64,000 bases of DNA from an uncultured Thermoanaerobaculia bacterium (lineage in GTDB: Bacteria; Acidobacteriota; Thermoanaerobaculia; Thermoanaerobaculales; Sulfomarinibacteraceae). Under the pieces are notes generated by a model that was not told where the DNA came from, ran no database searches, and saw nothing but the letters and a program-made list of their open reading frames with translations. The translations under genes were made by a program, and so were the position numbers. Below, piece after piece: positions 9,802-60,963 of the stretch. How positions within the stretch are numbered: position 1 is the first letter of the stretch; every line of letters begins with the position of its first letter. The stretch covers positions 10,101-74,100 of the forward strand of contig CAZSTH010000003.1 of NCBI GenBank assembly GCA_964609835.1. The letters run 5' to 3'.

Positions 9802-9814
9802 GGGGACTGCCTGC

Positions 9815-12757: not shown

Positions 12758-13019
12758 AGGCGCCGTCGGGGCGTGGCGCCCTCCTCCCGGCTGCCGCTCA
12801 CCGTCCCTGTCCACGGGCGCGCTCGCGTGCGCTCCAGGTTGTCGAGCGTTCTTGAGATTGCGGCTTTTGAGCAGACATGGAAGTGCATAACCAGTTCGAA
12901 ATATGGGTGTATACTGGCGGCGTGTTTCGTCTCGGAGTCTTCCGGGCATTCGGTGTCACGGCCTCCCCGGTCGCGGGCGATCGCCCCCCGGTGCGGTCTG
13001 GAGAGGAAGGGAGTGCGGC

Positions 13020-18928: not shown

Positions 18929-18960
18929 TCGAGCCGCCGGGTTAGGGCGAGGGGAGGCTC

Positions 18961-20488: not shown

Positions 20489-20496
20489 GGCTGCCT

Positions 20497-30037: not shown

Positions 30038-30882
30038 CCCTCGACCCGACGCCATATTCGTTTGCCGACCAGCGCCACGAGGTAGGTTGCGCCGGCGACC
30101 TGGATCACCGTCGCCCCGGTGGGAAGCTCCGGACCGTAGCTCAGAACGATGCCGCCGAGCGTGAACAGGAAGCACAGCGCGGACGCTCCGAGCATCGCGC
30201 TCCACAGGCGCCGCGCGAACTGCAGGGCCGTCGCGGCCGGCAGCGTCAGCAGGGCGATCACCATCACCAGGCCCACCACCTGGGTCAGGAGGACCACCGT
30301 CAGCGAGATCAACACGAGCAGCAGCGTGTGATAGAAGCCGACGGGAATGCCGCGCAAGCGGGCCAGCTCGGGCTGAAAGCTGATGACGAGGAACTTGTCA
30401 TAAAAGAGCAGCATCAGCGCGACGATGACTGCGTCCAGCACGACCATGTGGCCGAGGTCGGAGGAGCCGACCATCAGGATGTTGCCGAACAGGTAGCTCA
30501 TCAAGTCTTCGGAGTACCCCGGTGTCGCCGTGATGAAGCTGATGCCAATCGCCATCCCGAGCGCCCAAATGGCGGACAGCACAGTGTCCTCGCGTTGCCG
30601 TCCCGATTCGGTGACGACCGCGATGATCAGCGCCGCGACCACCGCCGCGACGGTTGCACCGAGGAGGGGGGTCGACCACTCGATGCCGTGGACGCGCTGC
30701 AGGTAACGCGCCGCCCCCATGCCCCCGAGAACGCAGTGCGCGATGGCGCCGGCCACGTACGTTGTGCGTCGTACCACGACGAAGCTCCCGACGACGCCGC
30801 ACGCCACCGACGCCAGCAGGCCGGCCAGGACTGCGTACTGGAGGAACGCGTGCTTCAGGAGGTGCTCCCAGAACAGGCTCAC
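30034..30882 (-). CDS. znuB: zinc/manganese ABC transporter permease
   Basis: ABC-3 family pattern (FLQYAVLAGLL...GAIAHCVLGG...). GTG start 2 nt after the znuC stop. Confidence 0.85.
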   Translation of the reverse strand: MSLFWEHLLKHAFLQYAVLAGLLASVACGVVGSFVVVRRTTYVAGAIAHCVLGGMGAARYLQRVHGIEWSTPLLGATVAAVVAALIIAVVTESGRQREDTVLSAIWALGMAIGISFITATPGYSEDLMSYLFGNILMVGSSDLGHMVVLDAVIVALMLLFYDKFLVISFQPELARLRGIPVGFYHTLLLVLISLTVVLLTQVVGLVMVIALLTLPAATALQFARRLWSAMLGASALCFLFTLGGIVLSYGPELPTGATVIQVAGATYLVALVGKRIWRRVEG

Positions 30883-30884
30883 GG

Positions 30885-31685
30885 CTAGGCCTCCTCGCCG
30901 TGGTGCAGCTCGTCCATGGCGTCGGCAGGGTCGAGAACGTGACAGCTCGGATCGTGCTGGAGCACCGTCATATCTCCGCGGTGAAAGGCATGCAGCTCGC
31001 CCGCGGTGAGGTTGTCGACGCGGGTAAGCGACGCCGTGCGGTTCACGCACGCGACGTGCGAGGCATGGCGGGTCACCACGTTCAGGTTGTGCGAGACGAC
31101 AACGATCGTCATACGTTCATTGAGTTCGTGCAGTAGCTCGTAGATCTCGTGCTCGACGGCCGTGTCCACGTTGGCGGTGGGCTCGTCGAGCAGCAGGAGA
31201 TCGGGATCCGACGCCAACGCCTGCGCGATCAGCGCACGCTGGCGCTCGCCGCCGGACAGCTGTGCGAGGGAACGTCGGCTCAGGTGCCCGAGGCGCACAC
31301 GCTCCAGCGCCCGGGTGGCTTTTTCGCGGTCAATCCGGCGGAACGGGCCCAGCCAGTGTCGATCCACCCGCCCCATGAGCACGACGTCTAATGCGCTCAC
31401 CGGAAACTGCGCATCGAAGGCGAGGTGCTGGGCAACGTAGCCGATCCCTCTTCGTCGACGCTCCGGCGCGTTGCCGAAGACCCGGACCGTCCCTCGCTGA
31501 GGTTTCATCAGACCCAGCGCCAACCTGACCAGTGTCGTCTTGCCGCCTCCATTGGGGCCAACCACCGCCACGAGGCTGTTCTCCGGCACCGACAGCTCGA
31601 CGTTGTGCAAGACCTCCTCGCGGTCATAGGCAAAACAGACACCACTGAACTGGAGTGCGGCTCGAGTGCTCACGTTCTGGCTCAC
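30885..31685 (-). CDS. znuC: zinc ABC transporter ATP-binding protein
   Basis: Walker A GPNGGGKTT. LSGGERQR. LLLLDEPT. Confidence 0.85.
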   Translation of the reverse strand: MSQNVSTRAALQFSGVCFAYDREEVLHNVELSVPENSLVAVVGPNGGGKTTLVRLALGLMKPQRGTVRVFGNAPERRRRGIGYVAQHLAFDAQFPVSALDVVLMGRVDRHWLGPFRRIDREKATRALERVRLGHLSRRSLAQLSGGERQRALIAQALASDPDLLLLDEPTANVDTAVEHEIYELLHELNERMTIVVVSHNLNVVTRHASHVACVNRTASLTRVDNLTAGELHAFHRGDMTVLQHDPSCHVLDPADAMDELHHGEEA

Positions 31686-31704
31686 AGCGTCTCCGAACCT
31701 CTCA

Positions 31705-32694
31705 TCACTCTTGTTTTTGGAGCGCCTCGTGAATCGCCGCCGCGACTCCTTCCAGATTGGCTACGTAGTCTCGCGCGAGGGGATCGATGGGCACCACGGC
31801 GCCGTCGATGGCCTCGGCAACCCGCTCGGCCGAGCTCGTGCTGAACTGGGGTTGGACGAAGATCATGCGCACGCCTTCGCTCTTCGCCATTTCGATCACC
31901 CGGGCAAGCTGCTGCCCGCTCGGGTCCTTCCCCTCGATCTCGATGGGTGTCTGCTCGAGCCCATAGGCATCGGCGAAGTAGCCCCAGGCCGGGTGGAACA
32001 CCATGAAGGTTTTCCCCTTGACCGGCGCCAGCGCCTCGACGAGGTGGGCGTCGAGCGCGTCCAGATCCTCGACAAAGGCAGCAAGGTTCTTCTCATAGGT
32101 CGCCCTGCCCGCCGGGTCGACGTCGATCAGCGCATCCGCGATGGTCCGGGCCTGGACCTTCACGAGCCGGGGGCTGAGCCAGATGTGCGGATCAGTGCCG
32201 CCGTGGTGGTGGTGATGCTCTTCTTCGGCGTGGTGGTTGTGTGCTTCGGAATGCTCGGCATCATGGGCGTTGTGCTCATGAGCGTGACCGTGTTCATGGT
32301 GCTCTTCCTGGTATCCGCCGTTGCCGTTATGATGGGCCTTCATCTCGCGAAGCGTGATCCCCTTGCGCGTGTCGACGATCCGAGGTCCCTTCGCCATCCC
32401 TTCGATCTTCGGGACGAAGGCGTTTTCGAACGGCACGCCGATGCGGAAGAAGATCGTCGCCTCGGACAGGGCCGCCATCTGGCGCGGCGTGGGCTCGTAG
32501 GTCGCGGGACTGCTGCCCGGCGTCACCAGTGCCTGCGCCCGGACCCGATCGCCGCCGACCCGCTCGACGAAGTGCTCCTGGGGCAGGATGCTGGTGAAGA
32601 CGGTGATCCTGATCTCATCTGCTGCGAAGCCAACGGTCGGGAGCGTGCAGAGAATCCCCAGGATCAGACACTCGGCCCTTCTGCTGCAGTTCAT
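31705..32694 (-). CDS. znuA: zinc ABC transporter substrate-binding lipoprotein with His-rich loop
   Basis: Cluster-9 SBP pattern (PHIWLSP). Long His/Glu/Asp loop (HHNGNGGYQEEHHEHGHAHEHNAHDAEHSEAHNHHAEEEHHHHH). The ATG overlaps the zur stop. Confidence 0.9.
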   Translation of the reverse strand: MNCSRRAECLILGILCTLPTVGFAADEIRITVFTSILPQEHFVERVGGDRVRAQALVTPGSSPATYEPTPRQMAALSEATIFFRIGVPFENAFVPKIEGMAKGPRIVDTRKGITLREMKAHHNGNGGYQEEHHEHGHAHEHNAHDAEHSEAHNHHAEEEHHHHHGGTDPHIWLSPRLVKVQARTIADALIDVDPAGRATYEKNLAAFVEDLDALDAHLVEALAPVKGKTFMVFHPAWGYFADAYGLEQTPIEIEGKDPSGQQLARVIEMAKSEGVRMIFVQPQFSTSSAERVAEAIDGAVVPIDPLARDYVANLEGVAAAIHEALQKQE

Positions 32695-33167
32695 GTCGCA
32701 TTTCCTCTCTTGAGTTCCGTTTTGGTCGGGGGCTCATCACCGTGTTCCAGACAGTCCGGGCAGTGGCCTCGGATCTCCACCGACGCCTTCTCGACTGACT
32801 GGGCCCACGGCCCGTCCACCGACATCGAAGCGGTCAGCTCGACCGGCAGACAGGCAACCCGACCGCAGTCTTCGCACACGAAGTGCGGATGGCGGTGCAC
32901 GGCGCCCCCGGGCGGCGCCAGGGCGTATCGATCGATGCCCTCGGCGCGGGAGACGACGGGTGCAATGCCGGCTTCGCGCAGCTTTACGAGGTTGCGGAAG
33001 ACCGTTGCCGGATCCCAATCCGTGTCCCCGAGTCGGGCGAGCACGTCGCCGCAGGAGAGCGGGCCGTCCGATTCGGCCAGTACGCGAAGCACCGCAAGTC
33101 GCGGCGCCGTCGCTCGTAGGCCACGCTCGTGCAGGATTGCTCGCGCTTTGTCCCTGGTGATGTCCAT
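32691..33167 (-). CDS. zur: Fur-family zinc uptake regulator
   Basis: Winged-helix N-terminus (RATAPRLAVLRVL). HRHPHFVCEDCG and CPDC Zn-site motifs. First gene of the znu operon. Confidence 0.85.
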   Translation of the reverse strand: MDITRDKARAILHERGLRATAPRLAVLRVLAESDGPLSCGDVLARLGDTDWDPATVFRNLVKLREAGIAPVVSRAEGIDRYALAPPGGAVHRHPHFVCEDCGRVACLPVELTASMSVDGPWAQSVEKASVEIRGHCPDCLEHGDEPPTKTELKRGNAT

Positions 33168-33203
33168 ACCGCCTCCCCGAACGATGGACCGGCGACCAGC
33201 GTC

Positions 33204-33232
33204 ATTGTAGGGGAAATGACTTGCATCTGCAA
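33204..33232 (-). promoter_or_regulatory. sigma70-type promoter of the zur-znu operon (TTGCAG-17-TACAAT)
   Basis: On the minus strand: TTGCAG (33232-27), a 17-nt spacer, then TACAAT (33209-04), about 35 nt upstream of the zur ATG and its GGGGAGG RBS. Confidence 0.6.
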
Positions 33233-33276
33233 ATCGTTTGCGTTACGATCTCGGCTCAATTGCCCAGATGCAAGTC
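33218..33276. promoter_or_regulatory. 12-bp perfect inverted repeat in the divergent zur / COG0523 control region (candidate Zur operators)
   Basis: GACTTGCATCTG (33218-29) and CAGATGCAAGTC (33265-76). The left arm lies in the spacer/-35 of the zur promoter. Confidence 0.5.
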
Positions 33277-33318
33277 GTATGCATCAAGGCGATACATCGG
33301 CAAGAAAAGGGAGACACC

Positions 33319-34554
33319 ATGACCGTGGCACATTCTCAACCCGATAGGCGGCTTCCCGTCACCGTGCTGTCAGGCTTTCTAGGAGCTGGGAAGACCACCC
33401 TCCTCAACCAGATACTCAACAACCGGGAGGGCCGGCGGGTGGCGGTGATCGTCAACGACATGAGCGAGGTCAACATCGACGCGACGCTCGTTGAACGCGG
33501 CGGGGCCGAGCTCTCGCGGACCGAGGAGAAGCTGGTCGAGATGACCAACGGCTGCATTTGCTGCACCCTCCGCGATGACCTTCTCGCTGAGGTCTCCCGG
33601 CTCGCCAAGGAGGGTCGCTTCGACTATCTGCTCATCGAATCCACGGGGATTTCGGAGCCCATTCCCGTCGCTCAGACCTTCACGTTCGAGGACGAAGAGG
33701 GCGTCTGCCTGAGCCAGGTGTCGCGTCTCGACACGATGGTCACGGTCGTGGATGCCGCGAGCTTCCTCTCCGACTACAACGCCGCCGAAGCACTCCAGCA
33801 ACGCGGCGAGTCGCTGGGCGAGGACGACGAGCGGACCGTGACCGATCTGCTCGTCGACCAGATCGAGTTCGCCGACGTCATCGTGCTCAACAAGCTCGAT
33901 CTGGTGAGCGACGAACAGGCCCGCGAAGTGGCGGCCGTCGTCACAGCGCTCAATCCCGGCGCCATGGTGCATATGGCGACGCGCGGACGAGTGCCCCTCG
34001 AGTGCGTGATGGACACGGGCCGGTTCGACTACGAGAAGGCCGCGAGTTCTGCCGGTTGGATTCGAGAGCTTCAGGGCGAGCATACCCCGGAGACCGAGGA
34101 GTACGGAATTTCGAGCTTCACGTATCGAACCTCGCAGCCGTTCGACGCCGAGAAGCTGTGGGCGTTCCTCAACGACGACGACAACTGGCAGGACGTGCTC
34201 CGCTCGAAAGGGTTCTTCTGGGTTGCGGCGGATCATCGGGTGGCGTACGAGTGGTCCCAGGCTGGCGCCGTCAGCGACGTCCGATCGGCCGGGATGTGGT
34301 GGGCCGCCGTACCTTGCGAGCACTGGGGTCACCCCGAGGGCCAGCGACCCGACCAGCAACCGGGCTGGCATCCGCGCTTCGGCGATCGCAAGCAGCAGAT
34401 CGTCTTCATCGGTCGGCACATGGACGAGGCCGGCATCCGTGCTCGGCTCGACGAGTGCCTGCTGCATGAGCACCTCGCCGCCGCCGACAGCTCGTCGTGG
34501 TCGGGGCTTGAAAACCCCTTCCCAGAATTGCAATCGGACGAGGACGCGGCGTAG
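33319..34554 (+). CDS. COG0523-family GTPase metallochaperone (CobW/ZigA/YeiR-like)
   Basis: Walker [10 protein letters not shown]. Metal motif [18 protein letters not shown]-terminal CobW_C-type domain. AAAGGGAG RBS. Confidence 0.85.
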
Positions 34555-34584
34555 CAGGAGCTGCGCCCTCTCGGCGGCGAGGAA

Positions 34585-35784
34585 TTGGTCATGAACACGC
34601 ATCCTCGAACCGACAGCACGCTGGCCGGGCTGGACTGGCTGATCATCGGCGGCGGGATCCATGGCGTCCACATTGCCGCCCGGCTCATCGGAGAAGGTCG
34701 AGTGGCATCCGAGCGGCTGCGCATCCTGGAACCCGCGGACCGGTTGCTCGCGCGATGGCGGACGTGCACCGCGACGACGGGCATGACCCACCTCCGCTCT
34801 CCGTCGGTCCACCATCTCGACCTCGATCCTTGGTCGCTCCAGCGCTTTGCCGGCGCGCAGAGTGTCCCCAGGTCCAAGCTCTTCGCACCCCCGTACGACC
34901 GGCCTTCGTTGGAGCTCTTCAATGCGCACAGCGACCGGGTGGTGGCGGCCTATGCGCTCGAGGACCTGCACATTCGCGGTCGCGCCGCGGCATGCGAGGT
35001 CCACCGCGATGGTGTGGCCGTTCGCACCGCCGACGGGGTCGAAATCGACGCGCGCTCCGTGGTGCTGGCGATCGGTGCGAGCGAGCAGCCGGAGTGGCCC
35101 GATTGGGCGCCGCGGGCCCACCCTCGCATTGCCCACGTGTACGAGCCGGGCTTCGCGGGATGGCCGTCTCCCGACCTTGAGGTGGTGGCCGTCGTGGGCG
35201 GTGGAATCTCGGCCACCCAGGTGGCGCTCCGACTGGCCGACGAAGGCCATCAGGTTCACCTCATCACCCGGCACCATCTCCGCCGGCATCAGTTCGACAG
35301 CGACCCGGGCTGGCTCGGCCCGAAGTTCATGGCGAAGTTCCATCGCGAGCGGAACCTCGACCGGCGTCGCGCGATGATCCTCAAGGCTCGTCACCGGGGT
35401 TCGGTGCCGCCGGACGTCCGGCAGGCACTCCACAAGGCCGTCGACCAGGGGCGGATCGCCCGCCACGTGACTGAGATCGAGGGGGTTGTGGCCGGGGGCG
35501 ACGGGCTCCGACTTCGTCTGGCCGATGCCGAGTGCCTCGAGGTGGAGCGCGTGCTGCTCGCCACCGGCTTCGCGCCAGAGCGCCCGGGAAAAGCGATGGT
35601 GGACGAGCTGGTCGCTTCTGCCGGATTGCCATGCGCACGCTGCGGGTACCCGGTGGTCGACTCGGCGCTGCGCTGGCATCCCAGGATTCACGTGTCCGGC
35701 CCGCTCGCCGAGCTGGAGCTCGGCCCGGCCTCGAGGAACATCGCCGGGGCTCGTGACGCCGCCGACCGGTTGGTCGAGGTGTGA
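34585..35784 (+). CDS. FAD/NAD(P)-binding two-dinucleotide-domain flavoprotein (uncharacterised oxidoreductase/monooxygenase)
   Basis: IIGGGIHGVHIA and VVGGGISATQVA Rossmann motifs. LLATGF near the C-terminus. Confidence 0.7.
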   Translation: MVMNTHPRTDSTLAGLDWLIIGGGIHGVHIAARLIGEGRVASERLRILEPADRLLARWRTCTATTGMTHLRSPSVHHLDLDPWSLQRFAGAQSVPRSKLFAPPYDRPSLELFNAHSDRVVAAYALEDLHIRGRAAACEVHRDGVAVRTADGVEIDARSVVLAIGASEQPEWPDWAPRAHPRIAHVYEPGFAGWPSPDLEVVAVVGGGISATQVALRLADEGHQVHLITRHHLRRHQFDSDPGWLGPKFMAKFHRERNLDRRRAMILKARHRGSVPPDVRQALHKAVDQGRIARHVTEIEGVVAGGDGLRLRLADAECLEVERVLLATGFAPERPGKAMVDELVASAGLPCARCGYPVVDSALRWHPRIHVSGPLAELELGPASRNIAGARDAADRLVEV

Positions 35785-35785
35785 G

Positions 35786-36196
35786 ATGGCGATTCATGCG
35801 ACTCAAGCTCTCACGGGAGTGCGTCTGCCACGCCTCAGGGTGAGCTTTCGCTCCACAGAGCTGAGAACAGCCTCCGCCTGCGTTTGCCTGGTAATGATCG
35901 GGTGGGCCCTCGCGGGAAGCTGGCCGGCTCACACCTGCATCCCTCGCTGCCACAGCGACGGCTGCCATTCGACAAGTGCTTCTCACAGCAAGACCGGGCT
36001 GTCCGCGCTCCACGTTGAGAATGCTCGGGGCTGTCCTGCGTGTCATCTGCTGCGCTGCCTCCAGCACACCACCTGCGTGGCGCCCCCGACCATTCTGAGC
36101 GCCCCCCATCGAGAGCCATACTCATCGATCGAACGCCGGTTCTCGTCGGCGCCGGTCCGCCCGTTCGGTTGCGCGCGCGCTCCTCCTCGCGTCTGA
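35786..36196 (+). CDS. small membrane-anchored Cys/His-rich protein, DUF2946-like
   Basis: The ATG is 2 nt after the flavoprotein stop. One TM (CVCLVMIGWALAG). Motifs CIPRCHSDGCH and CPACHLLRC. The C-terminus ...CARAPPRV resembles the ARAPP ending I recall for DUF2946. Sits directly upstream of a TonB-dependent receptor, as that family usually does. Confidence 0.55.
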   Translation: MAIHATQALTGVRLPRLRVSFRSTELRTASACVCLVMIGWALAGSWPAHTCIPRCHSDGCHSTSASHSKTGLSALHVENARGCPACHLLRCLQHTTCVAPPTILSAPHREPYSSIERRFSSAPVRPFGCARAPPRV

Positions 36197-36248
36197 GTCC
36201 GTTCCGTCCGACAGCTCTGACGACGAAACAAACTCCAAGGAGGAGACC

Positions 36249-38495
36249 ATGCTTACATCGAGCTTCAAGCGCCGCTTGGCGTGTGCTGCGTTTGTCATCG
36301 TGTCCCTATCGTCCATCGTCTTCGCGGTCACTCCCGCGCCATCGCGAGCCGGCCACACCCTCGAGGGGCTGGTGGTCGAAGCGGGAGGCGCGACCGCCCT
36401 TCCCGGCGCCCAGGTCCACCTGGTCGAGCTGAACCGGGTCGTCTCGAGCGACGACCTCGGTCGCTTCGTCCTGCGCAACGTCCCTCCGGGGCGCTTCACT
36501 CTGGGCGTGCATCTCGCCGGCTTCGCCAGCTACCACGCGGCGATCGACATCCCGAGCGGAGAGGTCACGGTCGAGCTCGCACCGGCGCTTTTCGAGGACG
36601 AGATCTCGGTCACCGCCTCGCCCTTCGCCGTCGACCGCCTCGAGGTCGCTCAGCAGGTCGATGTGGTGGCGGGAGAGGAGATCAAGCGGGCGAGCACCGC
36701 CTCACTCGGCCAGGCCCTGAGCGCCGTCCCCGGCGTCGCCAACATCCCGACCGGCGAAGCGCTGGGCACGCCGGTGATCCGCGGTCTCTCCGAGAGTCGC
36801 ATTCGCGTGCTCAGCGACGGGGTGCCCTTGAACCACCAGCAGTGGAGCTGGCGGCACTCGCCCAACGTCGAGGCCAGCCTGGCGCGCTCCGTCGAGGTTG
36901 TCCGCGGGCCGGCGAGCGTCCTGTACGGCCCGGACGCCATGGGTGGCGTGATCAATGTCATCCCGCCGCCGTTGCTCGCCGCCCACGGCAATGATCCCGT
37001 GGTTCGTGGCGAGGTCGCCGCGGGCTGGGGCAGCAACGCAGACGAGTTCACGGGTCGTGCCGAGGCGGAGGGTGCTGCCGGTGGCTTCGGCTGGAATCTC
37101 GGCCTCGTCCGCCGCGATTCCGGCGACATCGAGACTCCCGACGGCACGCTCGACAACACCGACTTCGAGCAGACCAACGGCAACGCGACCGTCGGGCTGT
37201 CAGGCGCCTGGGGAACCGCCCGGGTGCGGTGGAACCACTGGGAGCTCGACACCGGCTTCTTCAGGCCGCCCGACTTCCGGTTGAAGCTCGACAACGACCT
37301 GTTTGCCGGTGATCTCTACATCCCGACTCGGATCGGAGATCTCGAGTTCTCGTTCGGCCACCAGACCAACATCCGACAGGCCTTCCCGGCGGCGCTCGGA
37401 GGCCAGCCATCGGTTGACCTGAAGCTCGTGACCCAGAGCAACCGAGCCAGCCTCAACCATCAACCCATCGGTCCGTTCCGCGGTCGTGTCGCAGTCGAGT
37501 ACATCGGGCTCAACAACACACCCCGTGCCCTCGGCCGCCTTCTGCCCGAGTACACGAGCGACGGATACGCGGTGATGGTGTTCGAAGAAGGCCGATTCCT
37601 CCGCGAGGACGACTTCGATCGCTTGGTGGTGAGCTTCGGCGCGCGATGGGACGGGTCGGACATGGAGGTGCCGACCGATCTCAGCCGGAACCTGCCTGAC
37701 GGTTTCTCCAACGACTACAGCGCGGTGACCGGTTCGCTCGGCGTGGTGTATCGAATCAACCGCACCGTGTCGCTGGCCGGCAACCTTGGGCGCGGCTGGC
37801 GCCCACCGAACGCCTTCGAGCTGTTTGCCAACGGGGTTCACGGAGGGGTTTCGGCCGTGCAGATCGGCAATTCAAATCTCGAAGAAGAAGAAAACCTCAA
37901 CGCAGAGCTGTCGGTGCGCTACGAGAGCGGCCGGTTCCGGGGCTACGTCACCGGCTACCGGACCGAGTTCGACCGCTTCATCTACATGGCCGACACCGGA
38001 GAGGTGCAGGGCGCCCTGCCGGTGTTCGAGTTTCGGCAGGCGGATGCCACGATCCAAGGTTTCGAGGCCTCGCTGGAGGGGCTCGCCACCGACTGGCTTC
38101 GCCTCGGGGCGACCTACGCCCTCGTCGACACGGAGAATGACGAGACCGGCACCCCGCTGCCGCAGGAGCCGGCGGCGAGGTGGCTGCTGCTCGCATCGGT
38201 CGAAGGCCGAAGGCTCGGTCCGCTGCGCGAGCCGTTCGTCGGCATCGACGTCTACCTGGTGAACTCACAGGAAGTCTCCGGGCCCGACGAGCCTTTCGGG
38301 GTGGCGACCGACAGCTACGAGCTGGTCGATCTCCGCGCGGGATTCGAGCTGCCTGCAGGCAGCGTGACGTGGGGCCTCGACCTCACGGTGCGCAACCTCT
38401 TCGACAAGGCCTACACCGACTTCCTCTACAGCTACAAGGCGGTTGCCCTCAACCCCGGTCGCGACGTGCGATTGGTCGGGCGCCTTCGATTCTGA
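36249..38495 (+). CDS. TonB-dependent outer-membrane receptor with N-terminal carboxypeptidase-regulatory-like domain
   Basis: Signal peptide. CarboxypepD_reg-like beta-sandwich (GLVVEAGG...LRNVPPGRFTL). Plug domain (VIRGLSESRIRVLSDGVPL...VEVVRGPASVLYGPDAMGGVINV). C-terminal ...VGRLRF. Confidence 0.9.
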   Translation: MLTSSFKRRLACAAFVIVSLSSIVFAVTPAPSRAGHTLEGLVVEAGGATALPGAQVHLVELNRVVSSDDLGRFVLRNVPPGRFTLGVHLAGFASYHAAIDIPSGEVTVELAPALFEDEISVTASPFAVDRLEVAQQVDVVAGEEIKRASTASLGQALSAVPGVANIPTGEALGTPVIRGLSESRIRVLSDGVPLNHQQWSWRHSPNVEASLARSVEVVRGPASVLYGPDAMGGVINVIPPPLLAAHGNDPVVRGEVAAGWGSNADEFTGRAEAEGAAGGFGWNLGLVRRDSGDIETPDGTLDNTDFEQTNGNATVGLSGAWGTARVRWNHWELDTGFFRPPDFRLKLDNDLFAGDLYIPTRIGDLEFSFGHQTNIRQAFPAALGGQPSVDLKLVTQSNRASLNHQPIGPFRGRVAVEYIGLNNTPRALGRLLPEYTSDGYAVMVFEEGRFLREDDFDRLVVSFGARWDGSDMEVPTDLSRNLPDGFSNDYSAVTGSLGVVYRINRTVSLAGNLGRGWRPPNAFELFANGVHGGVSAVQIGNSNLEEEENLNAELSVRYESGRFRGYVTGYRTEFDRFIYMADTGEVQGALPVFEFRQADATIQGFEASLEGLATDWLRLGATYALVDTENDETGTPLPQEPAARWLLLASVEGRRLGPLREPFVGIDVYLVNSQEVSGPDEPFGVATDSYELVDLRAGFELPAGSVTWGLDLTVRNLFDKAYTDFLYSYKAVALNPGRDVRLVGRLRF

Positions 38496-46514: not shown

Positions 46515-47056
46515 CGGGGCTCCTTTCGGTCGCGCAGTCGCAGTCGCTCCTCGCAAAGATCGAGCCAGCGGACCTCGGCCTCGGCCTTGAGGATGACGGC
46601 GTCGAGCAGCAGGACCCACGGAAGCTGGCGATCGGGGTCCGCGGCCATCTTTTGTCGGGTGTACTCCTGCAGCTGATTCATCGTTGCGGCGCGCTGAGTC
46701 TGCAGGATGGCCCTGACGTCGACGGCGTCGGCGGCGACGGCGAGGAGGACCTTGATGGCGAGCTCGTCGCGGGTCGGCCGGTCGTCGACCGGGGAGGCGT
46801 ACCAGTCGCGGAGCTCGGCGCGGCCGACGGTGGTGATCCGCCACGAGCGCCGCGCCGGGTCGTCACCTTCGTTGGCCTCGACGAGACCGTCGCGCTCGAG
46901 TCGGTTGAGCGTGGTGTAGACCTGTCCGACATTGAGGGGCCAGGCGCCGGCGGTCGAGGCTTCGAACTCTGACTTCAGGCCGTAGCCATGGGTGGAATGG
47001 TCAGCGAGGATGGCGAGGATACTGTTCCGTACGGACATGAGATACTGAGTATGCAT
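46511..47056 (-). CDS. PadR-family transcriptional regulator
   Basis: ILAILADHSTHGYGLKSE...GQVYTTLNRLERDGLV plus a C-terminal dimerisation domain. Start is either 47056 or 47038. Confidence 0.8.
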   Translation of the reverse strand: MHTQYLMSVRNSILAILADHSTHGYGLKSEFEASTAGAWPLNVGQVYTTLNRLERDGLVEANEGDDPARRSWRITTVGRAELRDWYASPVDDRPTRDELAIKVLLAVAADAVDVRAILQTQRAATMNQLQEYTRQKMAADPDRQLPWVLLLDAVILKAEAEVRWLDLCEERLRLRDRKEPR

Positions 47057-47065
47057 ACTCGGTAT
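47042..47065. promoter_or_regulatory. 24-bp near-perfect palindrome at the padR start (candidate autoregulatory operator)
   Basis: ATACTGAGTATGCATACTCGGTAT, with a perfect 14-bp core GAGTATGCATACTC at 47047-60. It overlaps the first ATG of padR. Confidence 0.55.
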
Positions 47066-47275: not shown

Positions 47276-48145
47276 CTATTCTTCTTTGAGGCCCTCGACG
47301 GAGGTGACCGTCATGTCGAAGACCACGTCTTTCCCCGCGAGGGGGTGGTTGGCGTCGAGGCGGGCGACGTCGTCGTTGAGTTCCATGACGACCAGGGGAA
47401 AACGAACACCTTGCTGGCTCTCGGCCGTGACCATGGTGCCGACCGTGGCGTTGGGCGGAAGCTGCGACCGGGGCACCTCGAAGACGTGCTTCTCGTTGCG
47501 CTCGCCGAACCCTTCGGCTGCCGGCACCTCGGCGACAGCGTGGGCCCCCTGCTCCAGCCCGGCCAGGGCCTCCTCGACCGCCGGGAAGTTCTGCCCGGCA
47601 CCATAGACGAATCGCATGGGGCCGGCCTCGGAGGAGGTGGTCAGGACGGTGCCGTCGGTGTCCTTGATCTCGTACTCCACCGTCACCAGGCGGCCTGCGC
47701 GGATGTCGGGGGTGCCCTCGATGGGCACCGTCTCGGGCTCGTGATGGTGGTGGTGGCCGTGGCTGCCGCAGCTCCCCTCGCCGCCGCTGCAGGTCTGAGA
47801 TTCACCGAAGGCGGGGCAGCCACCGGCGACGAAGAGCTCGACCGCGTCGCCGACCGTGGCGGCGCCCGCCGAGTGGCGGACCTCGATGCCCACCTGCTGG
47901 AACCCGGCGAGCGGGCGCACGCCCATGCCGCCGGCGAGCAGCACCTCGACGCCGCGTTCTTTCAGCAGCGTCACGGGCGCCATGCACCCGGCCTCGCCGT
48001 GCGGGGAGTTCTCGATAATTGAAACCTCGCCGATGCCGTTGTCGGCGACGTCCACCAGGGTGAACGCGGCACAGTGGCCGAAGTGCTCCGCGATGCGGGC
48101 GTCGAGTCCGTCAGTGGTGTCCGAGGGAATGGCTACGAGCATCAT
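47276..48145 (-). CDS. fusion protein: NifX/NifB-type cofactor-binding domain, Cys/His-rich linker, SlyD-type FKBP peptidyl-prolyl isomerase
   Basis: N-terminus (LVAIPSD...IAEHFGHCAAFTLVDV...LLAGGMGVRPLAGFQQVGIEV) fits the PF02579-type fold. Linker CPAFGESQTCSGGEGSCGSHGHHHHH. C-terminus colinear with SlyD (VTVEYEIKDTDG...FVYGAG...EALAGLEQG...ANHPLAGKDVVFDMTV). AAAGGAG RBS. Confidence 0.8.
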   Translation of the reverse strand: MMLVAIPSDTTDGLDARIAEHFGHCAAFTLVDVADNGIGEVSIIENSPHGEAGCMAPVTLLKERGVEVLLAGGMGVRPLAGFQQVGIEVRHSAGAATVGDAVELFVAGGCPAFGESQTCSGGEGSCGSHGHHHHHEPETVPIEGTPDIRAGRLVTVEYEIKDTDGTVLTTSSEAGPMRFVYGAGQNFPAVEEALAGLEQGAHAVAEVPAAEGFGERNEKHVFEVPRSQLPPNATVGTMVTAESQQGVRFPLVVMELNDDVARLDANHPLAGKDVVFDMTVTSVEGLKEE

Positions 48146-48254
48146 TTGCTCCTTTCACGAAGGGAGATGGTAACCGGCGAGCCGGCGGCTGTCCACGCCG
48201 ATGGTTGGACGGGTGGGGGCACTCATCGCGGCACCGGTCTGATCGATCGCGTCC

Positions 48255-49238
48255 TCAGGATCGGGGAGTTCGGAGTTGGAGCACGATCAGGCCGAGGTCG
48301 TCGTCGAGGCGATCCAGCTCGTGAAAATCCGCCATCGCCCGCAGGAGGTTGTCGGCGATCTGCGGCGCCGAGCCACCGCGCTGCAGCACATCGGCGGCGC
48401 GGGCGTGGGCGAACATCTCACCGGCGTCGTTGCGCAGCTCGACCAGCCCGTCGGTGTACAGTAGGAGGGTGTCGCCGGGTTCGAGGCGCGCGTGCCCCTG
48501 CTCCCAGGAGGTGCCGTCGATGAGCGCCATCGGCACTCCGGTGGCCTCGAGCTTCTCGACCGAGCCGTTCTTGCAGCACAGGAGCATGGGCTCGTGCCCG
48601 GCGGAGACGAAGCTGATGGAGCCGCCGTCCGCGATCCGAATGAAAGCGCCGGTGGCGTACAGGGGCCTCGGATCGTCGGGGTTGCGGAGAGCCTCGAATC
48701 GGTCTCCGAGCCGTCTCGGGATGTCGGTAAGCGGCAGCGCCGGGTCCGCCTCGGCCAGCAACAGCTTCATGACCACGGCGGCGAAGCCGGATCTCACGCC
48801 GTGTCCGGAGACGTCGATCAGCCACAGCGTGAGCGACCCGTCGGCCTCGCCGCGCCAGCCGAACAGGTCACCGGACAGGTGGCAGTACGACTCGAGGACC
48901 GCCGCTGCATCGACCGGAGAGTCCGGCGGCAAGGCGCGCGGCAGAAGGTGATACTGCACGGCGTGCCCCAGCCGCAGGCCCTCGTCCATGCCGGGGAAGA
49001 GGTGGGGGCGGTAGACGAACGTCAGCGGCTCGTCGACGTCGCGCCGGACGGTACGCCGGTCGCCGGTTTGTCCGAGATCGGGCAGCGGATGCCGGTCGGC
49101 CTCGCGAATTGTCTCGGCCAGCAGGTCGCGGAGAGGCCGGCCGGCGATCGGCTGGTCGAGGAGGAAGTGCTCTGACAGCTGATGCAGCAGGTCTTTCGTC
49201 GTGGAATCGTCTCGGGGAGGGCTCATCGGCGCCGCCAT
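48255..49238 (-). CDS. PP2C/SpoIIE-family serine phosphatase
   Basis: LSGDLFGW...IDVSGHGVRSG...LYTDGLVE...DDLGLIVLQL. N-terminal start uncertain. Confidence 0.8.
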   Translation of the reverse strand: MAAPMSPPRDDSTTKDLLHQLSEHFLLDQPIAGRPLRDLLAETIREADRHPLPDLGQTGDRRTVRRDVDEPLTFVYRPHLFPGMDEGLRLGHAVQYHLLPRALPPDSPVDAAAVLESYCHLSGDLFGWRGEADGSLTLWLIDVSGHGVRSGFAAVVMKLLLAEADPALPLTDIPRRLGDRFEALRNPDDPRPLYATGAFIRIADGGSISFVSAGHEPMLLCCKNGSVEKLEATGVPMALIDGTSWEQGHARLEPGDTLLLYTDGLVELRNDAGEMFAHARAADVLQRGGSAPQIADNLLRAMADFHELDRLDDDLGLIVLQLRTPRS

Positions 49239-49295
49239 TGTAGCGGTCGCGTGATCCGGTGGCGAGGTTGGTGGGTCGCCGTGACAGGCTGGCTG

Positions 49296-49356
49296 CCCCA
49301 CAAGGAACTCGGGGGCGATCGCGGCTTGTGGGGCAGCCTTCCCGGCTGCCGGGCGG
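49296..49356 (+). repeat. 60-bp hairpin-containing direct repeat, copy 1
   Basis: CCCCACAAG-N20-CTTGTGGGG followed by CAGCC-TTCCC-GGCTG. Near-identical copy at 49555-49614. Confidence 0.85.
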
Positions 49357-58270: not shown

Positions 58271-59041
58271 TCAGTGATGGGGGTCGGCGTGGGGCACCAG
58301 CGAGTGCGGGCGCTCGAGGCCGTGGCGCTCCATCAGGGAAACGTCGTTCATGATCCCCGCCGACGGCCCGTCCGCCACCACCCGGCCGTCGTCGAGAAGT
58401 ACCGCCCGGGGGCAGACCTCGAGGATCATCTCGAGATCGTGCGACGCGACGAGCCGCGCCCGCGACGAGCCCTGCAGGAAGCGGATCAGCCGCCGCCGCG
58501 AGCGGATGTCGAGATTGGCGGTGGGCTCGTCGTAGATCACGAGCCGGGGCCGCATGGCGAGCACGGTGGCGATCGAGACCATGCGCTTCTCGCCGCCCGA
58601 CAGGTGGTGCGGCGCGCAGCCTTCGATGTCGCTGACGCCGGTGGCCGCCACCGCCTCGGCGACCCGCGCCCGCACCTCCTGAGGCGGCAGACCGAGGTTG
58701 CGGGGCCCAAAGGCCAGGTCCTCGGCGACGGTCGGGCAGAAGAGCTGGTGGTCGGGATTCTGGAAGACCAGCCCGACCTCGGGGCGGTAGCTGCCCGGCC
58801 GCACCGGCTCGTCGAAGAGCCGGATCGAGCCGCCGGAGGGCGCGACCACGCCGCACACCGCGAGAAACAGGGTCGTCTTGCCGGCGCCGTTCGGCCCGAT
58901 CACGCCGACGTGCTCGCCCTCGCGGAGGGCGAGGTTAACGCCGCGCAGGACTTCGGGCCGGTCCGGGTAGGCGACCGCGAGGTTCTTGACCTCGAGAATC
59001 GCGCTGCCGTTGATCACGTGCGGTGCCGTCACGGCGTTCAT
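58271..59041 (-). CDS. cbiO: energy-coupling-factor type Ni/Co transporter ATPase
   Basis: GPNGAGKTT, LSGGEKRMVSIA, VIYDEPTANLD. Last gene of the cbiM operon. Confidence 0.85.
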   Translation of the reverse strand: MNAVTAPHVINGSAILEVKNLAVAYPDRPEVLRGVNLALREGEHVGVIGPNGAGKTTLFLAVCGVVAPSGGSIRLFDEPVRPGSYRPEVGLVFQNPDHQLFCPTVAEDLAFGPRNLGLPPQEVRARVAEAVAATGVSDIEGCAPHHLSGGEKRMVSIATVLAMRPRLVIYDEPTANLDIRSRRRLIRFLQGSSRARLVASHDLEMILEVCPRAVLLDDGRVVADGPSAGIMNDVSLMERHGLERPHSLVPHADPHH

Positions 59042-59042
59042 C

Positions 59043-59819
59043 CTATCCCGCGCCGCCGGTGAGCAGGAGCTCGGCGATCAGGAACGCGGTCCCCGCCACC
59101 ACACCGGCGGCCGCGAAGGCAACGTCCCGTACGTCCGGCCGCGCTGCGTCGGCGACCGGCGCCCGGCTCGCGTAGCCGCGCAGGATCATGGCTCGGTGCA
59201 CGTGCTCGGCACGCGCGTGGCTCGACACGAACAAACTGCCGAGCAGCTCCCCGATCCGAAGCGCGGTGCTGCCCGACAGGTGCCGCCAGCGCAGCCCGCG
59301 CAGGCCGGCGGCGGTGCGCATCATCTGGAGATCGTTGCCGATCTCGTGGATCGCCCGGTAGGAGAAGAGCGACATGTCGGCAATCAACGACGGCAGGCCG
59401 AGGCGCTGCATGGCGACCACGTTGACCGGCAGCGGCGCGACGCCGAACAGCACCACCGCGGTGCTGCCGATCGCCCCGAACTTGGCGACTATGATCGCGA
59501 ACCGGCGCAGCCCGTCGGCGTGAATCGCGAGCGGCCCGAGCTGCCACAGCTCCGGGCCGCTGCCGACCAGCGGCAGCATCACGCCGAGGACCAACAGGAA
59601 GAGCAGCGCGGCCCGCAACCTCATGGCCACGAAGCCCGCGGGCAGACGTGAGGCGGCCACGATCAGTGTGGCGGTGGCCAGCATGGGCGGCATAAGCAGC
59701 GGCGACCGTGCGATTGCGAAGCCAACGATCAACGCGCCGAGACCGATGATGCGGCAGCGCGGCTCGAGCCGGTGGAGCGGCGCGTCGAGGCTCGAGTGCC
59801 GGTCGAGGTCGAGGACCAT
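59043..59819 (-). CDS. cbiQ: Ni/Co transporter transmembrane component
   Basis: CbiQ/EcfT-like TM pattern with a conserved Arg-rich loop (AMILRGY). Start 2 nt after the cbiM stop. Confidence 0.75.
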   Translation of the reverse strand: MVLDLDRHSSLDAPLHRLEPRCRIIGLGALIVGFAIARSPLLMPPMLATATLIVAASRLPAGFVAMRLRAALLFLLVLGVMLPLVGSGPELWQLGPLAIHADGLRRFAIIVAKFGAIGSTAVVLFGVAPLPVNVVAMQRLGLPSLIADMSLFSYRAIHEIGNDLQMMRTAAGLRGLRWRHLSGSTALRIGELLGSLFVSSHARAEHVHRAMILRGYASRAPVADAARPDVRDVAFAAAGVVAGTAFLIAELLLTGGAG

Positions 59820-59821
59820 CG

Positions 59822-60460
59822 TCAGCCGTCGAGAAGATCGGGCTGGACCTGGTGGAAGAACATCACCACCACTGCGGTCAGCAGGCCCTCCAGCACCGCC
59901 AGCGGCAGGTGGCCGGCGACCAGCACGGCGAGGCCGGTACCGCGCAGCGACGGGTCGATCTCGGGCGGGACCGTGGCGACCAGCAGCAGCGAGAAACCGA
60001 CCGCCGCCAGCACGATGCCACCGGTGCCGGCGGCGAAGCCGAGCACCGATGCCCACGCCCGGCTCGACCCCCACAGCGGACGGGCCGACCGGAACATGGC
60101 CCCCATCAGCAGCGCCGGGATCCCCATGATGCTTGCGTTGGCTCCGAGGGTGGTGAGCCCGCCGTGCTGGAACATGACGGCCTGGAAGAAGAGGCCGATG
60201 GCGATGGCGAGGAAGGCGAATGGCCCGAGCACGACGCCGAGGAGTCCGTTGAGCACAAGGTGGACGCTGGCCGGCGGCAGGGGAATGTGAATCCACGATG
60301 CGACGAAAAACGCCGCGGTGAAGATCGACGCGCGGGGGATCGCGCGGTGCGGATCGGGCCGCCGCTTGATGGCCGCCAGCGACCCGGCGCCGGTCGCGAT
60401 CGCCGCACCGTAACCCGCGAGGCAGGCGCCTGCGGGCAGGATGCCGTCCGGAATGTGCAT
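59822..60460 (-). CDS. cbiM: Ni/Co transporter substrate-capture component
   Basis: Canonical N-terminus MHIPDGIL. Seven-TM pattern. The ATG shares one nt with the upstream gene's stop. Confidence 0.85.
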   Translation of the reverse strand: MHIPDGILPAGACLAGYGAAIATGAGSLAAIKRRPDPHRAIPRASIFTAAFFVASWIHIPLPPASVHLVLNGLLGVVLGPFAFLAIAIGLFFQAVMFQHGGLTTLGANASIMGIPALLMGAMFRSARPLWGSSRAWASVLGFAAGTGGIVLAAVGFSLLLVATVPPEIDPSLRGTGLAVLVAGHLPLAVLEGLLTAVVVMFFHQVQPDLLDG

Positions 60461-60963
60461 CAGCCGCTGCGGCGCGAGAAGAAGAGGGCGGTGCCGACAA
60501 GGCCCCAGATCACGCACGCCCCCATGAGCACGCGCTGCAGGGTCGAGAGGTGGGGCGCCGACGATGCCTCGGCACGGACCTCGGACCGGGCGGGAGCTCC
60601 GGCGCCATCGCCTCCCGGTGGCGGCAAGGCGATGGTGACGACGCCGGCGTGCCCGCGGTCGGTGACCCGGACCGTCCACTCGCCGCCCTTCCCTGGTGGC
60701 GGTTCGAAGCTGAACGATCCGTCGTCCGCGCAGGCGCCGGTGAGCCAGGGTTCGTCGCCCGATCCCGGAGCGTAGACCGCGGCGCGCGCAGCCGCCATCG
60801 GGCGGCCCGAGTGGTAGCTGGCGCGGACCTCGACCCGACGTTCGACCCGGACCTCTTCCACAACGGTGGCGCCGACGGTGACGCCGTGTGCCTGCGACAC
60901 GGCCGGCGCGGCAACGGCCGCCGCGGCGGCGAGGCTCGCGAAGATCGAGAGTGAGCGCATCAT
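60460..60963 (-). CDS. secreted beta-sandwich protein with C-terminal TM anchor, first gene of the cbiMQO operon (occupies the CbiN/NikK/NikL accessory position)
   Basis: Signal peptide MMRSLSIFASLAAAAAVAAPAVSQAHG. GGAGG RBS. C-terminal TM LMGACVIWGLVGTALFF. Not a canonical CbiN. Confidence 0.65.
   Translation of the reverse strand: MMRSLSIFASLAAAAAVAAPAVSQAHGVTVGATVVEEVRVERRVEVRASYHSGRPMAAARAAVYAPGSGDEPWLTGACADDGSFSFEPPPGKGGEWTVRVTDRGHAGVVTIALPPPGGDGAGAPARSEVRAEASSAPHLSTLQRVLMGACVIWGLVGTALFFSRRSG

Follow-up and report, generated by a model that had tools for sequence, protein, structure and literature searches.

The analysed stretch of DNA (64,000 nucleotides, hereafter the window) contains a gene whose product joins, in a single chain, a NifX-fold domain, a Cys/His segment and a SlyD-type FKBP domain with an insert-in-flap (IF) domain. 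This architecture is real, recurrent and under selection. The fusion protein probably helps to build metal-containing proteins, as a Cys/His domain of the Fe-S-holding kind is joined in it to a SlyD-type enzyme, and the most reasonable reading is the role of a metal or metallocluster chaperone. The features of the locus, all on the minus strand, are the following.

48167..48195 (-): sigma-70-like promoter match between the PP2C gene and the fusion gene (109-nt gap), with TGGACA and TACCAT 17 nt apart
48149..48153 (-): Shine-Dalgarno-like AGGAG, read directly from the sequence
47276..48145 (-): fusion gene; reading from the first ATG gives 289 aa and ends in the stop codon TAG (47276-47278)
47762..48145 (-): N-module, aa 1-128, an entire small protein of the HFGHC-type NifX fold with its Cys tail
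48071..48085 (-): HFGHC motif (H21, F22, G23, H24, C25); H21 aligns with NifX H35
47984..48001 (-): loop and helix start with H49 and C54 (PHGEAGC)
47768..47818 (-): Cys motif C110-x8-C119-x6-C126, the "linker" of the earlier note
47741..47761 (-): His run H129, G130, H131-H135 and start of the predicted flexible connector
47282..47704 (-): SlyD-type module, aa 148-288, FKBP peptidyl-prolyl isomerase (PPIase) with insert-in-flap
47351-47503 (-): insert-in-flap chaperone domain, about aa 215-265

The open reading frame agrees exactly with the ORF list, as claimed earlier, and all motifs quoted from it in the earlier note (HFGHCAAFTLVDV, LLAGGMGVRPL, ANHPLAGK and the segment CPAFGESQTCSGGEGSCGSHGHHHHH) were found in the translation. 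Translation probably begins at the second ATG (48142), yielding a protein of 288 aa, since AGGAG lies 6 nt before it (3 nt before the first ATG) and homologues begin with MLIA...; a protein from public collections (P0001, 288 aa) is identical to the window protein. The promoter scan gave 2 sites versus 0.2 in shuffled sequences, these being consensus matches only. The hairpin after the stop codon was no better than in shuffled sequence (z -0.40), and the consensus scan for terminators yielded none downstream of the gene and a single match inside the coding sequence. An Rfam search gave zero riboswitch or other RNA matches around the fusion gene or elsewhere in the window, and zero tRNAs.

In total 463 homologue clusters matched the fusion protein; both Pfam domains were present in all 120 that were listed, mostly with lengths of 283-301 aa. 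The co-occurrence of PF02579 and FKBP_C, proposed earlier as a check, is thus shared by at least 120 clusters, which come from Acidobacteriota, Myxococcota and Planctomycetota MAGs and from many samples. That the gene is an assembly or frameshift artefact joining two separate genes, a concern raised earlier, is scarcely credible: the same architecture occurs in several phyla, an independent per-run Logan assembly yields the identical gene, the reading frame is continuous with codon-position GC (GC3 included) uniform over three segments of the gene and over the junction, inspection of the ORF revealed no internal start preceded by a Shine-Dalgarno sequence, residue conservation runs across the junction between the N-module and the SlyD half, and a chimeric join at about 47,700-47,830 is very unlikely because the architecture recurs in homologue clusters. 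In the trees, the core fusion family is monophyletic in both halves, and the SlyD halves of all fusions form one clade. The neighbour-joining tree of the N-half resolves the core family only and leaves the divergent fusions unplaced, so that it is the SlyD half alone that backs a single origin. A literature search found no paper describing the fusion protein, in agreement with the earlier remark that the architecture had not been seen described; however, hundreds of copies are present in public databases under automatically assigned names.

SlyD is a textbook folding catalyst with a metal-binding appendage. In the C-terminal half of the fusion protein, PF00254 (FKBP_C) matched aa 148-234 (E 3.3e-10; 40.6 bits versus the Pfam curated cut-off of 21.1). 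Colinearity with residues 7-136 of Thermus thermophilus SlyD (TtSlyD) extends over residues 152-284 and covers both FKBP and insert-in-flap (E 2.9e-15), as had been noticed from the letters, and the AlphaFold2 model matched full-length TtSlyD in Foldseek with TM 0.75-0.79 (normalised to the target, 144 columns). The substrate pocket of TtSlyD includes Y13, Y29, the backbone of N35/I37, Y63, H119 and F128 (PMC5034536). Its equivalents in the fusion family are Y/F158, F/Y179, Q185, L/F187, F213 (invariant), H267 (invariant) and F276 (114/116), of which the window protein keeps Y158, F179, Q185, F213, H267 and F276. Unlike TtSlyD, the fusions thus have an invariant Phe at the place of Y63; the Y63F mutant of TtSlyD retains 76% activity (PMC5034536). 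Judged from sequence and model, the SlyD half is intact as an FKBP+IF module of the kind found in SlyD of E. coli, T. thermophilus and H. pylori, complete and with the pocket known from TtSlyD kept, and PPIase and chaperone activity is predicted for it.

The tail of SlyD is another matter. The window protein ends in ...VEGLKEE, and its clade has no C-terminal His/Cys-rich metal-binding extension at all, while many fusion clades retain the AT.EE..HGH.H start of the SlyD tail (A..EE..HGH.H in sub-clades P0096-P0120 and in L001, L002, L004 and L005). Hence the idea that the tail had moved from the C-terminus to the middle of the protein fits the loss in the window's clade, but not the C-terminal HGHxH that most fusion clades still carry. 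The fusion, like SlyD, is predicted to attach a metal-binding segment to a folding catalyst; its putative metal part is a folded N-terminal NifX-fold domain of 128 aa, whereas that of SlyD is a disordered C-terminal tail. The fusion protein also scores far below the NCBIfam equivalog cut-offs (PRK10737 SlyD, 48.5 versus 174 bits; PRK15095, 52.4 versus 125). The MAG with fusion locus L001 additionally encodes a conventional His-tailed SlyD (L041), which suggests that the fusion is a specialised paralogue.

The N-module matched PF02579 (Nitro_FeMo-Co) at aa 15-106 (E 3.2e-18; 66.3 bits versus the curated cut-off of 26.3). Its sole match among NCBIfam N-domain models was the C-terminal domain of MrpORP (aa 4-108 on MrpORP positions 267-363), no NifX, NafY or NifB model being matched at E<=0.01. 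In Foldseek, the AlphaFold2 model matched TM1816, PH0822 and ORP structures with TM 0.82-0.88, and stand-alone proteins of 115-160 aa align with the fusion from aa 2 to about 126. By these sequence comparisons the N-module belongs to the HFGHC subfamily of the MrpORP/ORP type and not to NifX/NafY proper; the NifX/NifB/NafY-type assignment of the earlier note is upheld as to the PF02579 fold, but not as to the subfamily.

Several candidate metal ligands are concentrated in this module. The sequence EHFGHC occupies aa 20-25 of the window protein; H21 and H24 are invariant in the fusion family, and C25 is present in 115/116 members. H49 and C54 are invariant in all 116 fusion proteins; among 101 stand-alone representatives, H49 was found in 89, C54 in 98 and C119 in 82, and the three residues are retained or lost jointly (Fisher p 2e-6 to 3e-4 over representatives, with statistics that ignore phylogeny). 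An alignment by hhalign places H21 on H35 of the NifX sequence 9ian_E, although this pairwise alignment is weak (E 0.012); H35 of NifX ligates an apical Fe of NifB-co (PMC13128457). In other proteins the HFGHC module has DUF134 and ArsR HTH domains as fusion partners, which fits a ligand-binding module.

The closest parallel is MrpORP's Di-Nase domain, which has a CxHFGHCE motif and a C-terminal Cys-His (CDH) and has been shown experimentally to bind a [3Fe-4S] cluster (PMC6345978). With MrpORP and the Desulfovibrio ORP-cluster proteins the N-module shares the PF02579/IPR003731 fold, the HFGHC motif and perhaps the C-terminal Cys followed by His, and its stand-alone relatives adjoin Mrp/MinD-type Fe-S ATPases. 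In contrast, the partner in the fusion is SlyD rather than an Mrp/NBP35 ATPase, the gene lies outside any ORP-type cluster, and the first Cys of CxHFGHCE is absent (position 19 is occupied by Ala in the window protein, against Ser in the consensus of the family, ISEHFGHC), while H49, C54, C110 and C126 are additional conserved residues.

The Cys/His segment had been taken for a linker between the two domains. Instead, most of it is the native C-terminal tail of a large stand-alone family of ~130 aa (HFGHC...H-x4-C...C-tail); a whole small protein has been joined to SlyD. In the AlphaFold2 model of a stand-alone protein, the segment is ordered through the equivalent of C119 (block pLDDT 92). 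Stand-alone relatives terminate in ...C-x(1-8)-H, and the fusion has C119 followed by C126 and His residues, the comparison with CDH of MrpORP being made by description. C110 (109/116), C119 (115/116) and C126 (116/116) are all highly conserved in the fusions; C110 is fusion-specific, position 110 usually being Leu in stand-alone proteins. In the full-length model residues 116-135 have pLDDT <50, and on modelling grounds the connector, including its run of 2 to 8 His across the family, is predicted to be flexible only after about C126. The tail of the window protein, CPAFGESQTCSGGEGSCGSHGHHHHHEPE, is both Cys/His-rich and acidic. This chemistry rules out a thioferrate storage function like that of IssA from Pyrococcus furiosus (PMC5524996). 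IssA too has an IPR003731 domain followed by a C-terminal tail that acts in Fe/S binding, but that tail is long, cationic (pI about 10.7), aromatic, Gly- and Pro-rich with a single Cys, and binds polymeric thioferrate electrostatically (PMC5524996), whereas the fusion has a short Cys/His motif, then acidic residues, and continues into SlyD.

The neighbours of the fusion gene were as stated earlier: a SpoIIE/PP2C gene (48255-49301) 109 nt upstream and, on the downstream side, genes for PadR, an ABC ATPase and an FtsX permease, all confirmed by Pfam. The absence of nitrogenase and hydrogenase genes from the window also held, no such structural genes being found in Pfam scans of its about 46 ORFs. 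Among the other genes of the window are those for Zur-ZnuABC, a COG0523 GTPase and CbiM-type transporters. Co-regulation of the fusion gene with the Zur-ZnuABC/COG0523 cluster was considered and rejected: copies of the palindrome TGCAAAnnnTTTGC are confined to positions 33228 and 33269, and the region upstream of the fusion gene has none. Across 10 independent fusion loci no conserved neighbours were found, so that genomic context offers no clue to the clients. The sole recurrent neighbour, a Ser/Thr kinase (3/10 loci), comes from a family with many paralogues, and its recurrence was put down to chance. Genes for Mrp/MinD-type ATPases or MinD-Fer4 were absent at all 10 fusion loci, and IscU genes were likewise not nearby.

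The stand-alone relatives have a different context. In 57/80 loci they adjoin MinD/ParA ATPases bearing 2x[4Fe-4S] inserts, and a NifU_N/IscU scaffold is a neighbour in 11 loci; on two short contigs the only neighbours were an H+-PPase gene and a DUF134 gene, respectively. This context points to Fe-S trafficking. Neighbourhoods do not back a partnership between SlyD and HFGHC proteins outside the fusion, as a Rosetta-stone test found a NifX-like gene in 0/75 stand-alone slyD loci (+-10 kb).

That the fusion protein binds a metal or cluster, the identity of its cargo and clients, and transfer between them are what we infer from these data. The gene product would be a cytoplasmic maturation factor of two modules, with Fe-S or another metal on the N-module and the SlyD half holding and isomerising the client. 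The metal-binding site would draw on the first strand for H21, H24 and C25, on the loop that follows for H49 and C54, and on the tail for C119, C126 and C110, and would adjoin the position where NifX holds its cluster. By analogy with MrpORP, an Fe-S cluster is the likeliest cargo. SlyD, for its part, is an established metallochaperone with a recent link to Fe-S biogenesis, whose proteins it also contacts (PMC10653786). The His-rich flexible connector would tether the modules and may in addition be a site for ions of Ni, Zn or Co. A client that is unfolded or folded in part would be held by the IF domain and have its prolines isomerised at the FKBP site, and the tethered N-module would hand over, or take up, the cluster or metal. 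We consider the chances of this reading as a whole to be about even. A precedent for a prolyl isomerase dedicated to Fe-S enzyme maturation is NifM, a PpiC-type PPIase required to mature the Fe-S protein NifH (PMC12691677). NifM is a parvulin, not an FKBP, and lacks a cluster-binding domain, so the parallel is one of analogy, not homology.

Among the other functional readings, a classical SlyD-like Ni/Zn/Co metallochaperone, in which the tail and the His run bind mononuclear ions, the NifX-fold is a scaffold and the product feeds Ni to [NiFe]-hydrogenase via HypB, or to another Ni/Zn enzyme, as SlyD of E. coli and H. pylori does, seems unlikely but deserves serious weight. The tail of SlyD is a binding site for Ni, Zn and Co and is used in the maturation of hydrogenase (PMC10653786). 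Ca. Sulfomarinibacter relatives encode [NiFe] hydrogenases (PMC8528874). The 2-8 His after the Cys motif, the HGHxH retained by most clades and the metal-related genes of the window (Zur-ZnuABC, COG0523, CbiM) would agree with such a role, as would the core of 2 His and 2 Cys (H21, H49, C54 and C119), whose composition would suit a cubane, but equally a [2Fe-2S] cluster or a mononuclear site for Zn, Ni or Fe. However, the L001 MAG already has its conventional His-tailed SlyD, among characterised proteins the closest homologue of the N-module carries an Fe-S cluster and not a single ion, and the stand-alone relatives have Fe-S ATPases and IscU as neighbours instead of genes of the hyp, ure or nik kind. 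Moreover, no hyp or hydrogenase genes were found near any of the 10 fusion loci (0/10), and the fusion gene does not share the operator of the Zur-controlled promoter.

It is rather improbable that the protein is a regulated or sensing chaperone, in which the cluster or metal of the N-module is not delivered but acts as a redox, iron or oxygen sensor switching the PPIase/chaperone half. Ni bound to the tail of E. coli and H. pylori SlyD does repress PPIase activity (PMC10653786), and DNA-binding partners such as DUF134 and ArsR HTH are typical of sensor domains. The divergent fusion P0215 has lost the ligands while its SlyD half is intact, which suggests that the N-module metal is dispensable for basic chaperone function. 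Yet the ligand set is conserved across the core members (n=116), and the context of the relatives, with ATPases and a scaffold, is of the trafficking type.

A true NifX/NafY-like carrier of NifB-co, FeMo-co or a related complex cluster, combined with a folding helper, is highly improbable: PF02579 membership and the conserved cofactor-binding His of the HFG motif speak for it, but the 64-kb window is devoid of nif genes, as are the surroundings (+-8 kb) of the 9 other fusion loci, the best model is MrpORP, and the nearest relatives are small HFGHC proteins of non-nif clusters. Compared with NifX, NafY and the NifB C-terminal domain, the fusion shares fold and motif but lacks a NifX-type C-terminal docking tail and has additional Cys and His candidate ligands; nitrogenase is not mentioned in the paper on a related lineage (PMC8528874). 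NifX proper is thus ruled out by context and profile-model matches, and a FeMo-co-type cargo is unlikely.

Little is understood of how metal clusters are inserted into clients in the course of folding, above all in organisms other than model aerobes. With a folded domain of the MrpORP/ORP type replacing or supplementing the disordered Ni-binding tail, the fusion family is a natural experiment in the coupling of cargo and chaperone, and the compact (288 aa), soluble protein would be a tractable system. It would open to study what the widespread, uncharacterised HFGHC small proteins bind, whether PPIase/holdase activity is coupled to cofactor delivery, and which enzymes of abundant sediment and soil Acidobacteriota depend on the fusion protein. 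Tentatively, and with more doubt than confidence, it may represent a new class of maturation factor, an Fe-S or mixed-metal carrier tethered covalently to a prolyl isomerase/holdase, which couples insertion and folding for specific metalloenzymes of Acidobacteriota, Myxococcota and Planctomycetota. If this is true, such a cluster-tethered isomerase would mean that cofactor insertion and client folding are mechanically coupled in one polypeptide.

The fusion gene at 47276-48145 (minus strand) codes for 289 aa, and all motifs quoted in the earlier note were found in its product. The two domains are recognized by Pfam: PF02579 (Nitro_FeMo-Co) at aa 15-106 (E 3.2e-18, 66.3 bits versus a cut-off of 26.3) and PF00254 (FKBP_C) at aa 148-234 (E 3.3e-10, 40.6 bits versus a cut-off of 21.1). 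The start codon is likely at 48142, giving a product of 288 aa, as the first ATG is only 3 nt from AGGAG and the second 6 nt, and homologues start with MLIA... A full-length AlphaFold2 model, for which 116 family members served as input (mean pLDDT 81, pTM 0.52), was superposed on TM1816, PH0822, and ORP with TM 0.82-0.88, and on full-length Thermus thermophilus SlyD (TtSlyD) with TM 0.75-0.79 (target-normalised); TM1816 could be aligned to residues 2-111.

The fusion is real, and an assembly artefact is effectively excluded. Among 5.8 billion protein clusters searched, 463 matched at E<=1e-5; both Pfam domains were present in all 120 matches listed, most of them 283-301 aa long and 55-100% identical. 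The fusion occurs in species-representative genomes, including two Acidobacteriota MAGs and one MAG each from Sulfomarinibacteraceae, Myxococcales, and Polyangiaceae, and one fusion protein carries a Planctomycetota name. An independent per-run assembly (Logan SRR7048218) contains the gene in identical form, flanked as in the window. Codon-position GC is equal across the segments encoding the N-domain, the tail, and SlyD (GC3 0.88-0.90), and the ORF contains no internal start preceded by a Shine-Dalgarno sequence. In neighbor-joining trees (indicative only, no bootstrap support), either half of the protein gives a monophyletic core family, and all fusion SlyD halves, those of the divergent homologues P0122, P0132, P0150, and P0215 included, form one clade, whose sole non-fusion member is L041, a stand-alone SlyD from the MAG containing fusion L001.

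The Cys/His segment between the domains, called a linker in the earlier note, mostly belongs to the N-terminal module. Among 116 family members, H21, H24, H49, C54, and C126 are invariant, while C25 and C119 are kept in 115 each and C110 in 109. With aa 1-128 as the query, HMMER was run exhaustively against 1.84 billion representatives and produced 1268 matches (268 below 1e-10); after two fusion representatives, these are mostly stand-alone proteins of 115-160 aa, aligned from aa 2 to ~126 and ending there. Most of them stop a few residues past C119 with a short Cys/His terminus.

Ligand positions kept among 101 stand-alone representatives
C54, 98/101
H21, 92/101
H49, 89/101
C119, 82/101
C25, 68/101
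H24, 64/101

Retention and loss of H49, C54, and C119 go hand in hand (Fisher p 2e-6, 3e-4, and 1e-4, uncorrected for phylogeny). The AlphaFold2 model of one stand-alone member (pLDDT 91, pTM 0.85) is ordered through the Cys equivalent to C119 (block pLDDT 92), with disorder in the last 8 residues only. Given these matches, ligand counts, joint losses, and the ordered tail, the ~128 N-terminal residues amount to an entire small protein that brings along its own Cys tail. C110 is a gain specific to the fusion, the position usually being Leu in stand-alone proteins. The actual flexible connector comprises the His run, of 2 to 8 residues across the 116 members, and the EPETVPIEG segment after it, consistent with pLDDT below 50 at residues 116-135 of the full-length model.

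NCBIfam models of NifX, NafY, and NifB do not match the fusion protein; the only NCBIfam match on the N-domain is the MrpORP C-terminal domain (aa 4-108 versus model positions 267-363 of 365). The MrpORP 'Di-Nase' domain has a conserved CxHFGHCE at its start and CDH at its end, and binds a [3Fe-4S] cluster, as established by EPR and voltammetry (PMC6345978). H21, part of the HFG motif, is aligned by hhalign to H35 of A. vinelandii NifX (sequence from PDB 9ian_E; weak E of 0.012, register unambiguous), a ligand to an apical Fe of NifB-co (PMC13128457). Carriage of FeMo-co or NifB-co by the fusion protein is effectively excluded. As the structures of TM1816, PH0822, MTH1175, and ORP, unlike the fusion module, carry HFGR-type motifs and possess neither C25 nor C54, the HFGHC subfamily has no solved structure. 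The IssA tail, which is cationic and aromatic with one Cys (PMC5524996), matches the fusion tail poorly.

A metagenome scan with the stand-alone alignment provided 80 loci of stand-alone HFGHC genes.

Neighbours at the 80 stand-alone loci
Directly upstream, same strand: 1-2 CbiA/MinD-type P-loop ATPases with a 2x[4Fe-4S] ferredoxin insert, 57/80
Just downstream: ~127-aa weakly receiver-like protein, 45/80
Two or more NifX-like ORFs per locus: 44/80
DUF134 HTH protein: 19 and 15 of 80 (two neighbour clusters, one with a fused NifX-like domain)
Zn-ribbon protein: 17/80
Directly downstream: NifU_N/IscU-type scaffold, 11/80

This neighbourhood is of the ORP/MrpORP type; the gene cluster is strongly conserved and functionally uncharacterised. 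Elsewhere the module is fused to DUF134 and ArsR-type HTH domains, the architectures of P0148, P0152, P0263, P0127, and P0133 being DUF134-HTH or ArsR-HTH plus a NifX-like domain, or two NifX-like domains in tandem. Together, the neighbourhoods and HTH fusions point to a module that would bind an Fe-S or similar cofactor in trafficking or sensing, and the fusions suggest that it may also be a sensor domain of transcription factors.

The fusion gene itself looks free-standing, which is also the usual state of slyD. The neighbours were as the earlier note stated, Pfam recognizing a SpoIIE/PP2C gene 109 nt upstream and PadR, ABC ATPase, and FtsX permease genes downstream. Ten independent fusion loci share no neighbour except the abundant Ser/Thr kinase family (3/10), and 0/75 stand-alone slyD loci have a NifX-like neighbour. 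A promoter-like site (consensus match) precedes the gene at 48195-48167; no significant terminator was found for it and no Rfam element around it. A 12+12 nt palindrome at 47042-47065 (ATACTGAGTATG/CATACTCGGTAT, 92% complementary, no spacer), overlapping the PadR start codon (47056) and a promoter-like site (47076-47048), is a candidate PadR auto-operator.

Other features of the window
15752-16702, polyprenyl synthase
18961-19494, fatty-acid-hydroxylase-family protein
20497-21993, phytoene-desaturase-like amine oxidase
21990-23336, lycopene cyclase
28206-28934, DUF1980 protein
28931-30205, ArsP_1 permease
30034-32694, minus, ZnuB, ZnuC, ZnuA
32691-33167, minus, Fur/Zur-family regulator
33238-34554, COG0523 CobW-type GTPase, divergent
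34585-35784, flavin oxidoreductase
36249-38495, TonB-dependent receptor
58271-59041, minus, ABC ATPase
59822-60679, minus, CbiM-type (Co/Ni ECF) substrate component

The genes at 28206-38495 form a cluster of zinc-limitation type; the palindrome TGCAAAnnnTTTGC, in two copies (33228, 33269) around the cobW start, is a candidate Zur operator. The CbiM-type and ATPase genes (58271-60679) lie ~11 kb from the fusion gene, with no link established. Carotenoid-type genes occupy 15752-23336. Of two multihaem c-type cytochromes (2979-4472 and 12903-15572), the latter (889 aa) is fused C-terminally to a cytochrome b561/Ni_hydr_CYTB membrane domain and is not a hydrogenase; this architecture suggests a module for extracellular or periplasmic electron transfer. 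The Mutator-family (IS256-like) transposase ORF at 26104-26982 is probably truncated or frameshifted, as its match spans just positions 13-265 of a 379-position profile; the GC3 filter called no genes in this stretch. Two Ala_racemase_N proteins are encoded near each other on opposite strands (8653-9972 and 11219-12757), the second being a full alanine racemase with a ~130-aa N-terminal extension.

In the SlyD half, TtSlyD pocket residues (PMC5034536) were mapped onto the fusion family, numbering past residue 80 being adjusted by hand.

TtSlyD pocket residues and their fusion-family equivalents
Y13, Y/F158
Y29, F/Y179
N35, Q185
I37, L/F187
Y63, F213, invariant
H119, H267, invariant
F128, F276, 114/116

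The TtSlyD Y63F mutant keeps 76% activity (PMC5034536). The C-terminus A..EE..HGH.H, found in a large sub-clade (P0096-P0120) and in the MAG proteins L001, L002, L004, and L005, corresponds in alignments to residues 142-153 of E. coli SlyD and 138-149 of TtSlyD; it has been lost in the clade of the window protein. As the MAG of L001 also holds the conventional SlyD L041 (C-terminus ATEEELAHGHSHGEDGHHSH), the fusion is an additional, specialised paralogue.

The fusion protein would be a metallochaperone of SlyD type whose cofactor module is a different one, folded and N-terminal. Full-text literature searches found no published description of a NifX-type plus SlyD architecture; hundreds of copies are already in databases, automatically named, for example, 'FKBP-type PPIase 2/predicted Fe-Mo cluster-binding NifX family protein' or 'NifB/NifX family molybdenum-iron cluster-binding protein'. 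We give about an even chance to a cargo-carrying folding helper, in which the HFGHC module would hold an Fe-S cluster or metal while the tethered SlyD half would hold and isomerise a client. The main rival, a classical Ni/Zn-type SlyD function, is rather unlikely; the His run, the HGHxH motif, and the [NiFe] hydrogenases present in Ca. Sulfomarinibacter (PMC8528874) speak for it. A sensor-regulated chaperone is improbable, its support coming from the repression of SlyD PPIase activity by Ni (PMC10653786), the HTH fusions of the module, and P0215. This divergent fusion from outside the window (295 aa) has EQFENC where others have EHFGHC and lacks most ligands (H21, H24, H49, C54, C119, C126), its tail being Cys/His-free except for one retained Cys, with an intact SlyD half 48.5% identical to that of the window protein; as a natural 'ligand-dead' variant, it may serve as a control. 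Should the folding helper indeed couple cluster delivery with folding, the interest of the fusion family would increase.
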